From assembly GCA_964016885.1 (NCBI GenBank), contig OZ024742.1, positions 121,892,001 through 121,956,000 of the forward strand: a DNA stretch of 64,000 bases, written 5' to 3'. The position numbers were made by a program, and so were the translations under genes. The notes under the pieces were generated by a model. That model was not told the origin of the DNA. It searched no databases and saw only the letters and a list, made by a program, of their open reading frames with translations. The stretch comes from Eledone cirrhosa. Its lineage: Eukaryota. Positions 11,473-54,771 of the stretch are shown here, one piece after another (position 1 is the first letter of the stretch; every line of letters begins with the position of its first letter).

Positions 11473-11527
11473 ACTGCCTGAAGAGGTCACAGCCAAAGCT
11501 GGCTGTCACTGAAATATATATAGCAGT
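11473..11527 (+). ncRNA. Minimal type I hammerhead (family C), inverted copy
   Basis: Exact reverse complement of 7533-7587. Confidence 0.85.
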
Positions 11528-11649
11528 AATAAACGAAGCTAAATTTTAATCATTTGACTTTTATTTAACTTTATTTTATATATATATATATATATATATA
11601 TATATATATATATATATATATATATATATACTATATAGATATATTATAT

Positions 11650-12090
11650 ACTAGCAGAGGTACCCGGCGATACTCGGGTATTAAATAATAGTTATGTGTA
11701 CCAATTATGTAAATACTTCAGTGCTGCTTCGAAAACTATACTTTTACAAAATCATCGGCTTTTTCCAAAATGTGGTTCCTGCCCCCAGAGGTCCCCTACT
11801 CAATATGTGCCAATTCTGAGAGTTAACATTTATCTGTAGAACAAACGTAGCCCATGTGTCATGTGTCAATTTTTGTGAAAATCGGTTGCGAACTCCGGAA
11901 GTTAAGACGTTTTGTTGCATTGCACTGCAGTGCTTCAGTCGATTCAAGAAAGCGCTTCAGGGGGGTTATCTGCCTGGAGGCCCTATAATCAACATCTGGA
12001 ATAATGAAAGTGCCCATGACCATCCGAAGTACATAAGTAACCTATGTCTTAAGTTTGGTGAAAATATTGTAGAAATTCATAAGGTTTACA
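11650..12090 (+). mobile_element. Probable non-autonomous Helitron/Helentron-like element (similar 3' parts at about 13140-13310 and 15165-15445)
   Basis: Starts ACTAGC with a short hairpin TACCCGG..TCGGGTA; AAGTTTG..AATCGG motif followed by (AC)n/ACAG runs; no ORF. Confidence 0.45.
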
Positions 12091-12394
12091 CACACGCGCG
12101 CGCGCGTGTGTGTGTATGTATTTGTGTGTGCGTATGTATATGTATGTCCGTCGGCGCATACGTATGTACTGGCCTAAATCTTCACTATTTACTTTTACTA
12201 TTTTAATAACCTCTGTCATTTTCGTTTACAATTTTATTTACATCATTCTTAAACTCCAGGGCTGGATATCCTTCGACTATTTTAAATAGAATATTAGTCT
12301 AACGACTCCATTTATACCATAAACTTGGTCTTGTCTTTGCATGAAATTGTTCTTCTCGGTCCACATAACGACATATTATCCTCGCTTTTTTCCG

Positions 12395-12580
12395 TTCATT
12401 GCCAAGGAACGTCTTCCCAAACCAAAATATCGTCTTCCTGTTTTCCCTTCGGTTGCAACGTTTCTCGAAATATTTACTTCTGCGTTCACAGATTGAATTT
12501 TTTAGTTTCAGAAGATCCCGTTAATGTTGAAAGCCACGATTCTTTGCTTAAACTTTAATCTGTTCTTATAACAAATATAA
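12395..12580 (+). mobile_element. Family D pseudo-LTR copy with a degenerate U4A hammerhead-like motif (12504-12554)
   Basis: Aligns with 37046-37197 and 41150-41330. Confidence 0.7.
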
Positions 12581-13314
12581 ATATATATATATATATATAT
12601 ATATATATATAGAGAGAGAGAGCGAGAGAGAGATGCGTCTTTTTGTGTGTGTGTGTGTGTGTGCGGACATAAATATATATAATACACAGTCACAGTACGT
12701 CTTCTTTGAAAGAGAGAAAGAGACGTTAGATTGAGGAAAGGGGAGAGTTGAACAGTGTGTAATAGATAAATAAATAAAAGTTCCTCACTCTCTTTCTTTC
12801 TTTCTAAACCCCTCTCTCCCTTTTTTTCATACCCTCTCTCTCTTCTCTCTCTCTCTCTCTCTCTCTCTCTCTCTCTCTCTCTCTCTCTCACTCATACCCC
12901 CTCTCTCTCTGTCTTTATATATATGTGTTTGTGTGTGTGTGAACCAGCGTTCGTCGCCATTCTCTCTCTCTCTCTCTCTATCTGAATATCTTGTACCTCT
13001 CTCTGTATAACGACCTATCTCACTATCTCTCTCTACATATCCCTTTCTCTCTTTAGATGTATATGTATATATATATGTGTGTGTGTCTGTGTGTATGTGT
13101 ATGTGTGTGTGTGTGTGTGTGTGTGTGTGTGTGTGTGTAGTTTTCGAGCAACCGGCCAACCAATATTTATCTAGGGGCTGCATTAACAAAAACGTGAAAC
13201 TTTTATGAGTCCAAAACACGCATGTTTGTTCCAAGTTGGAAGAAAATCGGTTGCCAACTGTAGAAGTTCTGTGGGTACGGACATACACACACACATCCTC
13301 CGTTTATATATATA

Positions 13315-51444: not shown

Positions 51445-52100
51445 GATACTACGGGCATGTGGTTAGAAAGCCTCTGGAAAGAATCGCTGGGTAGATTTTT
51501 ACGGGTAAAACCAACAGGAAAGACACCCAGGCTTAGACCCCGTGCAAGATGGGGGTATAAAATCGTTGAGCTCGGCTCGTTTCGCTTGAGGATCCAGTCA
51601 GGTTAATTGGAAACGGTTGCTTCTGACAGGGCTCGTTTGATGTAGTGTTTGAGGACTCCGGCCCAAGACACTCCAAGGAATAATAATAATAATATTAATA
51701 ATAATAATAATAATAATGTTTTCTTTATTAACCACAAGAGTTTACATAAAGTAGACATTAAGGACAGTACAGGACAATACAGGACGGTACAAATGGGAAT
51801 TTCTGCGTGTAAAAAAACAAAAACAGAGGATGTAACAAAAAATAACAATGGAAAATTCCCCAATAAGGGGGAGACTTCCGAGGGACATTTGTGGAGAAAG
51901 CCCATTAAAAGGCCACAGTGACCCTGACCACCAGGGCAAGTGCCCTCTCCCAGTTTTCCACCTTTAATTTACAGACACATACTCAGAGTAGGCCATTCTT
52001 GCTTCTCTCACCCATCTTTCAACAAAATGCTGGGAAGAGAGCACTTCTCTCTTTACCCTGATTTTCCTTTTCAAATGAAATAATAATAATAATAATAATA
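51445..52100. mobile_element. Two short, degenerate LINE 3' ends: RTE-like on + with a (TAA)n tail, L1/Tx1-like on -
   Basis: YGHVVR.. followed by (TAA)n at 51680-51717; RKIRVKREVLSSQHFVERW on the minus strand; family assignment weak. Confidence 0.4.
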
Positions 52101-52345
52101 ATAAGAAGAAGAAAGATAATTTAATATAATTTCGATTAATTCTCTCCAGATTTCGTTTTGTTATATATAATGTCTCGTACATTAAAGAAAAGCGGTTCGA
52201 ATGTGAGAAAAAACACTTGATAGATAATCTCACTCAATTTTACGTAAACCAGAAAATGAATATATCAAAAGATGTACAAAAAAGTAGGAAGTATAGTTAT
52301 TTTACCTGGTCTGAGAATATTGTCTTAGTTACCAGATATGACCTA

Positions 52346-52728
52346 CCGTGATTCCCCTATTATAAGACAGGTCTTATATAATTTTCTCTCTCTCTATCAA
52401 AAAAAAAAAGAAACTGCACTACATCCCGGGTAGGGTTTATATTTTTACAAAAAATAAAAATAATAGCACCAGAACTTTGATAAAAGTATCATTATACTGA
52501 TATCAAAAATAATAAATAAATAAAGTATATATGTAATAGAGTTAAAAATTATATCATTAAAATAATTTATTCTATTAGTAATCAGCAAGAACCTGAACAT
52601 CTGTGTTTTAGATTATTTTGTATATTAATTTTTCTCGCCAAAATGCGCTAGGGCTTATATAGGATAGCAACATAAAAAACATTCTAGGGCTTATTTTTGG
52701 AGTAGGTCTTGTAATAAGGAAAACACGG
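52346..52728. mobile_element. Tc1/mariner-pogo-type MITE
   Basis: Imperfect TIRs CCGTGATTCCCCTATTATAAGAC / GTCTTGTAATAAGGAAAACACGG flanked by TA on both sides; no ORF. Confidence 0.7.
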
Positions 52729-54260
52729 TATTTACATGTAGCCTGCTTGAAAGATAATTCTGGTCATTATGGACATTTTACAATGTCAGTGACGGGACTA
52801 GTTATGGAGATTTTACAATGTTAGTGATGGGATTATTATCACTGAATGTCAATCTTATACATTTTGTATCTTGCCTATATTAGCACAATATTTTATATAA
52901 TTTCTTATGTATAAGGAATTACATTTTGAATGCTGAGTGGCTTTGTTATCTGAAATATTACACAAAATATTGTTTGTTTGTCTGTTGTAAGGTAAACGGT
53001 CCTATAGTTCATGAAAGGGGGAAATAGGTGTTGTCATGTTCTAACCCTTCATTTAAGTATAGATTGAGTGAATTGGTTTCAAAATAAATCATGATAACAG
53101 TTGATCAGATGTTTACTGCTTCATGAAACGCCATTGTTTTGATGAGGCGATATATCTCGCCTATATTCATTCCTCATTTGGAGCATGAATTATTAACTTA
53201 AACAAGGTGAATTGTTCTACAATTTATTCTGAAACTGCATTGAAATTTCACTCACCGAATAAACTTACTTCCGGCTGATAGGAGTACGACCTTGCTGAAT
53301 AAAGTGTTCAGAAATATGTTAGAAAACAAGATATTTGAAATATTGAATTGCAGAACTGTAATAGAGAAGAAAAGAATGTCAACTTGTCAACATTGTATTC
53401 TTGTGAAAGCCTTTTCTTTTTCCGCATTTGCTTTCGAAAACTAGAAATTAAGTGAACAGTTACATGGTGAAAAGAAATTTTCTTCAAACTCAAAACAGAA
53501 GTAAAAAAATAAATAGAAACTAAAACAGAACCAAACAAAAGACGAAAAACGTATTCTAAAACAAAAAAAATTAATAGAATTACGGTTTTTCTTCTTTTCT
53601 TCCCAACATATTCTTCACAGTGAGTCTGTTATTTGCAAAAAAGAAAATCTTGCTTCATGTAGCTGTTAGTTTTCCTTTATTATTGATATCGGACATCTCA
53701 ACAGTAATCCGCTGTCAGTTTGGTTAAGTATTGGCAAATGTATAAAAAAAGAAATCTCATACAGAAAGAAACAGAGAGAGAGAGAGAGAGAGAGAGAGAG
53801 AGAGAGAGAGAGAGAGAGAGAGAGAGAGAGAGAGAGAGTTAAGGGAAAATGAGAATGAGAAAAATTTCGAGAAAGATAGTGGAGGAATGGAGGTGCAGAG
53901 AGAGAAAGAAAGACACGTACAAAACGTTCAAATATACAAAGAAATATTTATAGTCACACAGAAATATATACACAAGCCAATATTCACCGACTGATACTAT
54001 CTGGTTAAAAACGAAACAGAACCAAATAAAACGTGAAGCAGTACATATATAACGGAAGTGAGGAATATTGTACATATATATATATGTGCACTGAGTGTTA
54101 GAGAATGCTTGAGTATGGTGGTGTTAGTGTGTACTTGTGTGTGTGTGTGTGTAGGGTCTAATGAACACCGAAGGGGAACATTATAAAGTTTATTTCAAAG
54201 AGGATTTCATCAATGGAAAACAATACAAGAGGAGAAATAATATATATATATATATATATG

Positions 54261-54771
54261 TAAAGTTATATTTAAAATTGTTGGGTTACAACTAGTAAAT
54301 ATTTATAACTGATATAAAAGCACTCGACAAATATTTGGAGTATATTTACAATATTAAATAAATGGAAAACTATATTTATAAAACCATATTTATTTCATTA
54401 TATATATTTCGGGGATATCATATTAACAATATGCTATGCCTTCATCAGACAAAATACAATATAAACAGTTTTATAGATAAATATATTCGACATACCGTAA
54501 TAAACATCAACTTCATTTGAAGAGGTTTACGCTAGCAATGACTGCTAGCAGTGACTGCTAGCAGTGACTGCTAGCAGTGACTGCTAGCGTAAACCTCTTC
54601 AAATGAAGTTGATGTTTATTACGGTATGTCGAATATATTTATCTATAAAACTGTTTATATTGTATTTTGTCTGATGAAGGCATAGCATATTGTTAATATG
54701 ATATCCCCGAAATATATATAATGAAATAAATATGGTTTTATAAATATAGTTTTCCATTTATTTAATATTGT
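54261..54771 (-). mobile_element. Palindromic non-coding PLE-type element (family N)
   Basis: About 190-bp arms 54348-54536 / 54583-54772; spacer made of four 13-mers; the left arm extends about 85 nt; TA flanks. Confidence 0.88.
54663..54728 (+). ncRNA. Type I hammerhead (family N); mirror copy at 54391-54456 on the minus strand
   Basis: TATTTTGT-CTGATGA-AGGCATAGCATATT-gtt-AATATGATATCCCC-GAAA-T-ATAT-A-TA|ATGAAATA. Confidence 0.85.

Follow-up and report, generated by a model that had tools for sequence, protein, structure and literature searches.

A conserved unpaired cytosine in helix II of the hammerhead motifs that end Hydra-clade Penelope-like retrotransposons in Eledone cirrhosa

The stretch of DNA analysed here, called the window throughout, comprises 64,000 nucleotides (nt) of the octopod Eledone cirrhosa (GenBank assembly GCA_964016885.1, contig OZ024742.1, positions 121,892,001 to 121,956,000 of the forward strand), is rich in (TA)n, and carries a broken Hydra-clade Penelope-like element (PLE) with its reverse transcriptase (RT) and endonuclease, together with 11 hammerhead ribozyme motifs in which a cytosine at the fourth position of helix II has no pairing partner (Table 1). 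These motifs belong to a real and conserved variant of a known association between ribozyme and retrotransposon, one that is apparently undescribed. A preliminary description, made from the letters of the window, had listed six of the motifs, and it gave their positions, their first three pairs, the mismatch at pair 4 and the return of pairing from pair 5 correctly in all six; the five additional copies are the minus-strand copies of families C, G and N and the plus-strand copy of family H, and position 4 is unpaired in 11 of 11. Pairs 1 to 4 of helix II read G.U, G-C, U-A, C.C in family C; G.U, G-C, A-U, C.C in family G; three A-U pairs and C.U in family H; A-U, A-U, G-C, C.C in family M; and A.C, G-C, G-C, C.C in family N. 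Most of the copies form inverted pairs that terminate truncated or broken elements, and one copy of family H is predicted to be inactive, since its core G5 is altered.

Table 1. Features of the window: mismatch hammerheads, the elements that carry them, and hammerheads that pair position 4 (that at 40232-40319 included) or are otherwise free of the mismatch.
Feature	Position	Strand	Unpaired C. partner	Context
Hydra-clade PLE, broken copy	7482..11578	-		RT 9582-11432 and GIY-YIG endonuclease 8805-9368, in different frames
Family C hammerhead	11473..11527	+	C 11488. C 11507	inverted 5' copy of element 7482..11578; predicted cut after 11522; AATAAA at 11528
Family C hammerhead	7533..7587	-	C 7572. 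C 7553	3' end of element 7482..11578, sense to the ORF
Family C hammerhead	44124..44176	+	C 44138. C 44157	short self-inverted insertion 43756-44231
Family C hammerhead, inverted twin	43811..43863	-	C 43849. C 43830	
Family G hammerhead	25192..25258	+	C 25210. C 25235	self-inverted insertion 25006-25306
Family G hammerhead, inverted twin	25054..25120	-	C 25102. C 25077	
Family H hammerhead	25358..25428	-	C 25410. U 25381	inverted end of truncated element 25315-27922
Endonuclease ORF, family H element	25782-26645	+		truncated element 25315-27922
Family H hammerhead, sense 3' end	27809..27879	+	C 27827. U 27856	core G5 changed
Family M hammerhead	49215..49279	+	C 49233. C 49256	solo 3' fragment between (TA)n runs
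Family N hammerhead	54663..54728	+	C 54681. C 54705	self-inverted insertion 54240-54869
Family N hammerhead, inverted twin	54391..54456	-	C 54438. C 54414	
Hammerhead, position 4 paired	449-491	+		C pairs with G; up to 15 bases common with family C, core onward
Hammerhead, position 4 paired	39491-39533	+		as 449-491
Hammerhead, position 4 paired	38791-38833	-		as 449-491
PLE hammerhead without mismatch	32127-32160	+		
PLE hammerhead without mismatch	40232-40319	-		
Family X hammerhead	15690-15738	-		C-G at position 4
Family X hammerhead	20843-20891	+		C-G at position 4

The mismatch motifs are the 3' ends of Hydra-clade PLEs. In the window, the inverted ends of the broken element are 258 nt long and 99.6% alike, and inverted ends also enclose RT and endonuclease open reading frames (ORFs) at three fetched loci (L061, L065 and L070). 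The window ORF has the DKT motif, to which DKG is changed in Hydra-clade elements, as do 11 of the 12 loci scanned, and RW[KR] lies upstream of DKT in the same frame in L207, L226, L209, L183, L200, L152 and L144; the endonuclease stretch of the window gives a weak Pfam match to GIY-YIG (E 0.00086, below the curated cut-off) and has the CxCx5C linker and the CxxC before the conserved E, its resemblance to the published alignment being judged by eye. The copies terminate in (TA)n runs, as expected of Hydra-type (TA)n insertion, and in the fetched loci the hammerhead follows the RT core motif at a distance of 2.1–3.2 kb, which would make these elements longer than the usual <3 kb by way of a long 3' untranslated part. 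The closest named relatives of the window RT are in Argonauta hians, Octopus sinensis and O. bimaculoides, and Hydra-type RTs of Argonauta and Octopus (P0005, P0070 and P0075) are labelled “GATA zinc finger domain-containing protein 14-like” in NCBI. The 3'-terminal type I motif, the (TA)n-inserting habit and the DKT, RW[KR] and CxCx5C motifs are the same as in the elements described in the relevant sections of Craig et al. 2021 (PMC8557442), and the terminal repeat, the long helix II, the palindromic helix III suggestive of dimers and the AU-rich 3' flank are the same as in the motifs treated in those of Cervera and de la Peña 2014 (PMC4209133). No Rfam hammerhead model appeared among the best 150 of 221 hits for the window, nor among the 3 hits for the family M copy.

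The relationships of the families were followed through their RTs. A codon motif of the RT matched the genome 12,340 times, and 60 stretches were fetched, 58 of them picked from the first 100 matches; the hammerhead behind each RT was read wherever one was present, the trees were built from these loci, and the links between RT and hammerhead were mostly checked between loci or through the flanking inverted ends. Families C, Q, CA1, N/P, M, H, H2 and CA3 form one RT clade with a support of 100/100 and RT identities of 48–75%, the link of CA3 consisting of one locus together with its likeness to H. No RT was found for family T or for the long form of family G in 40 upstream stretches, and G was placed by the flanks that it has in common with CA1 and not by an RT of its own. 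Two other candidate links, of K in L227 and of G3 in L266, were rejected as chance neighbours, and a search pattern with a long spacer mostly matched a coding stretch of long interspersed nuclear elements (LINEs). Four of the five families that had first been taken as independent have an RT, and all four fall in this clade; as read from the RT sequences, the mismatch families are thus of one origin kept over long divergence, and not of five, because they share one RT ancestor. On the RT tree of eight lineages the C at position 4 needs 0 changes, the other six positions of the 5' strand need 2–3, and the partner of the C changes four times, never to G.

The same base stands out in an alignment of 23 distinct lineages with the mismatch architecture, each represented by one real copy from the fetched loci. 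The core CUGANGA, GAAA and UH, whose bases were required by the search, is invariant in 23 of 23, and the motifs have three helices with helix I open; 87.9% of the cells are paired, the covariation exceeds that of 500 out of 500 shuffles and of all slid controls, and 12 of the 14 pairs have changed on both sides. Helix II is paired at positions 2, 3 and 6 in every lineage, so that the covariation of pairs 2 and 3 seen in the window extends to the larger set, and it is paired at position 5 in 22 lineages and at position 1 in 17. Pair 4 is paired in none of them (C.C in 17, C.U in 3, C.A in 3, never G), and its C is the sole invariant base outside the core. The rule of pyrimidine against pyrimidine, with which the mismatch had been introduced, has to give way to one of C against anything but G, as A is also a partner, in three lineages and about 3,500 copies. 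The absence of a G-C first pair is true of the window copies and does not extend beyond them, G-C being found at pair 1 in 3 of the 23 lineages and at pair 2 in 8; pair 1 can also be read as an extra base on each side. Nor do all families share a helix III of the form U-NNNN-A and an AUA site, the counterparts in family Q being C..G and GUC. In 30 of 39 lineages the 25 nt downstream of the site contain AAUAAA or AUUAAA, starting 0–14 nt past the site and overlapping the cut base in M, G and H, while upstream the hexamer is seen in 1 of 39; it may act as a poly(A) signal.

Genome-wide, a pattern with the core and helix III fixed and helix II left free had 104,764 matches (52,846 + 51,918) in the 3.0-Gb genome, compared with 414 (191 + 223) for the reversed pattern used as control, which amounts to a density of about 35 copies per Mb. 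Position 4 is a C in about 99,600 of them (~95%) and another base in 5,197 (339 in the control); among the C copies, 3,974 have a purine opposite, which is G in 464 and A in about 3,500. As shares of all matches, C stands against a pyrimidine in ~91%, against A in ~3%, and in a C-G pair in 0.4%, and the first 100 of the 464 C-G copies are singletons scattered over all families, besides one unrelated satellite. Once inserted, the C decays like neutral DNA: where it would be part of a CpG, TpG is found in 2,101 of 37,412 copies (5.6%, with CpG in 35,311), and where it would be part of a CpA, TpA is found in 798 of about 65,000 (1.2%, the other ~64,000 keeping the C). Three families that looked enriched in T were candidates for subfamilies with T at position 4, and these were rejected, as the T copies listed among the matches are scattered in the flank trees, where they need 5, 4 and 8 changes. 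At loci with an inverted twin, again among the matches listed, the twin of a T copy keeps the C in 4 of 5. The scatter of the T copies and the C of their twins indicate that the C-to-T changes postdate insertion, and the three T-enriched families tested yielded no lineage inside the clade that amplifies without the C. A scan of metagenomes gave at least 117 matches, two of which passed a loose stem filter and none of which was convincing, and it is uninformative on how widely the motif is spread.

These data bear directly on the possibility of a frozen accident, in which the G was lost once, in one ancestral element, and the mismatch then drifted on unselected. The main clade has a single origin, as such an accident would have it, and a common origin with a second group, called q (RT identity 40–47%, with C.C or C.U at position 4), is not rejected by the test (p-AU 0.155). 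Over the same history, the RTs have diverged to 48–75% identity, every neighbouring pair has changed with compensation and the partner has changed at least four times, while the C itself never has, and we therefore consider drift very unlikely.

A second possibility is that the mismatch is a mere brake, which weakens helix II and leaves most transcripts uncut, the identity of the C being an ancestral leftover. In silico, closing pair 4 brings a median gain of 5.9 kcal/mol and takes pair 2 from a probability of 0.28 to one of 0.98, from which the native junction is predicted to be marginal, and a destabilisation of about 6 kcal/mol speaks for a brake. Axolotl HHR_Amex2 offers a parallel, with a weaker helix II (U.U at its base) exchanged for a stronger helix III (Cervera and de la Peña 2020, PMC7229834), and other lineages of this genome have U.C, U.U, A.C or G.U at position 4, the A.C in one further lineage. 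Among the 25 Hydra-clade hammerhead families in File S2 of PMC8557442, 15 carry C at position 4 paired with G and none has an internal mismatch there, so that the C looks ancestral and its G lost, to judge from the comparison; in the same file the first pair is U.U or U.C in 15 of 25, which makes the missing G-C first pair a trait of the Hydra clade. What speaks against a plain brake is that C-to-U changes are frequent in the copies and would brake too, yet no U lineage has been amplified in the three candidates examined. A plain brake does not account for U never replacing C in the clade, and we regard it as distinctly improbable; as U.C would destabilise equally well, the base identity of the C itself looks selected.

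A selected base could serve a tertiary contact made by RNA alone, to helix I or the A-rich strand after it, in place of the loop-loop contact that is beyond the reach of a long helix II. Position 4 is where loop 2 starts in canonical hammerheads with a 4-bp helix II (PMC7936874), the identity of the C is conserved, and pairs 1–3 of helix I keep a fixed pattern of Y-R, R-Y and Y-R with covariation in the clade, all of which would suit such a contact. It is opposed by the lack of any invariant partner base in helix I or its flanks in the 23-lineage alignment, by the q group, which combines C.C with a different helix I, and by helix I itself, which has no conserved bulge and is 4–5 bp long in some lineages and 8 bp in others, and we hold this contact to be unlikely, if less so than the brake. 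The idea that the C pairs with core G5 instead was rejected (median probability 0.0003, maximum 0.46). As the alignment has no invariant G in helix I or close to it, what remains for the C is a contact with a protein or one of non-Watson-Crick type. A dimer contact, also raised in the preliminary description, is unlikely on the known fold of the hammerhead, in which helix II stacks on helix III, because helix II would then point away from the partner copy.

It may also be that the relevant hairpin forms in the complementary DNA (cDNA), the antisense strand, in which an invariant G would stand against G, A or T and be seen by the RT or the endonuclease during insertion. The antisense helix II is indeed predicted to be the more stable, with DNA medians of -5.4 vs -3.2 kcal/mol, an energy gap that may largely reflect how the model scores G.G as opposed to C.C. 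On the sense strand, though, G.U outnumbers A.C by 19 to 4 at the neighbouring positions, and it is on that strand only that the catalytic core is conserved, which leaves the cDNA hairpin as the least probable of the explanations weighed here.

By elimination, the unpaired C of helix II may serve as a site recognised by the element's own RT-endonuclease protein, which is our leading, and still tentative, reading, held at somewhat less than even confidence. With the same reserve, we favour a protein-recognition site over the RNA tertiary contact, the brake, drift and the cDNA hairpin. The precedent is the hammerhead of a PLE of the Poseidon clade, which needs the protein of its element in order to cut (Frangieh et al. 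2024, PMC11167929). In the mechanism that we propose, the open pair 4 would leave the core-proximal part of helix II marginal, with the naked monomer predicted to be largely off; the element's protein would bind at the unpaired C; two copies would pair through helix III and, with the protein, the junction would close and cutting would be enabled; and the cut would remove the tail with its poly(A) signal late in the cycle. Helix III, 8 nt long, is self-complementary in 23 of 23 lineages and gives a self-duplex of 6–8 pairs, which fits dimer cleavage.

Several points weigh against recognition by the protein. Binding at the C is reached by elimination, and cutting by the hammerhead of the Anolis Poseidon element PAc is dispensable for insertion in vitro in the experiments reported in PMC11167929. 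The antisense helix II folds more stably in 15 of 23 lineages as RNA and in 20 of 23 as DNA. The 23 lineages are related and partly hand-picked, majority-state copies with at least 4 of 6 neighbouring pairs having been required, and family Q was obtained with a pattern that demands the C; on the tree of eight lineages one position of the 3' strand also needs 0 changes, which makes that test weak when taken alone. A third group of hammerheads has U.C or U.U at position 4, so that the identity of the base is not universal, and at least eight other Hydra lineages in the genome pair this position, four of them by G.U, so the mismatch is not a general requirement of the clade. Within the U.C/U.U group (L114, L119, L135, L149, L150 and L152), a sequence block in helix II is common to otherwise different families; a link of the U.C group to the RT in L188 was rejected by a check between loci, the two being unrelated neighbours.

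Compared with what has been published, the motifs depart from the canonical hammerhead at several points. The Hydra hammerheads presented in PMC8557442 pair the C with G in a helix II of 3–8 bp, and the octopus entry among them, Hydra-1_Obim, is fully paired; here, by contrast, the spacer measures 20–47 nt in the main clade and reaches 105 nt in the q group. In the minimal consensus given in PMC4209133 the extra base is confined to the 5' side and G10.1-C11.1 is strongly conserved, which it is not here; in Fig. S3 of that paper a mismatch at pair 4 appears in 2 of 56 motifs (C.A in sea urchin and U.U in Clonorchis), isolated cases that the relevant sections of the text leave without comment. 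Nor do the motifs have the layout of canonical hammerheads with a contact between loops 1 and 2, in which the loop closing a 4-bp helix II docks on a bulge of helix I: helix II continues past pair 4 and helix I has no conserved bulge. PAc is likewise a PLE hammerhead and a precedent for activation by an element's protein, and it differs in belonging to another clade and in that the relevant sections of PMC11167929 define no recognition base within the ribozyme, its authors proposing binding at the start site of reverse transcription. The axolotl motifs HHR_Amex1/2 in PMC7229834 are alike in their number (~126,000 copies), in a natural helix II mismatch and in better cleavage as dimers, and differ in having canonical loop-loop motifs, in forming tandem non-coding repeats and in placing a U.U at the base of the helix where the present motifs have an invariant C at pair 4. 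We found no description of the mismatch or of these octopod motifs in the literature searched, although an earlier mention may be present in Lunse et al. 2017 or in Arkhipova et al. 2017.

Other Hydra elements of this genome were observed in passing. In family X, which besides its two window copies occurs at L161-L168, L180 and L183, most copies seen have the core CCGAAGA, with U4 changed to C; one subfamily has 113 genome matches, and a family called f has the same core change. A very young family (L193:1589-5120, in tandem arrays with a period of ~3.5 kb) has at least 130 RT copies that are 98–100% identical, many of them with open frames of 784 amino acids, and in its hammerhead, which has the U3-A8 core, a U is bulged at position 3 and helix III is a near-palindrome of 17 nt; short self-inverted ends of this family apparently lie at 7185-7301, 24037-24162 and 28240-28362 of the window. 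Hydra hammerheads at L194-L196, L200, L186, L209-L211, L216 and L220 have helix II inserts of 80–105 nt, which exceed the core spacers of 7–17 nt and 35–50 nt given in PMC8557442. The common family i (L190:2850-3200, L191, L154 and L266) ends in a degenerate hammerhead-like 3' motif with the core CAGAAGA and is probably also present at 14603-15135 and 57791-58321 of the window. Four more window stretches hold ORFs of other broken elements (3552-5589 and 45208-47134, minus strand; 30189-31830, plus strand; 35814-36407, minus strand), among which are a broken Gypsy-like pol with an integrase domain, two further sets of PLE-type ORFs, likewise broken, and a fragment of a LINE RT.

The variant bears on why PLEs retain hammerheads that barely self-cut, a question raised in the sections of PMC4209133, PMC8557442 and PMC11167929 that concern these ribozymes. 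Evolution has singled out one mutable base, and the C.C, C.U and C.A forms, together with the paired sister lineages, provide natural controls. Searches that demand a perfect stem miss what is probably the commonest ribozyme motif of this genome. It is a more doubtful extension of the proposed recognition by the protein that the C might be a lineage-specific handle by which the RT-endonuclease switches the hammerhead on, in which case it would be the first base within a natural hammerhead to be defined as a point of protein recognition, present in ~100,000 copies and perhaps of more than one origin among the Hydra elements of octopods.

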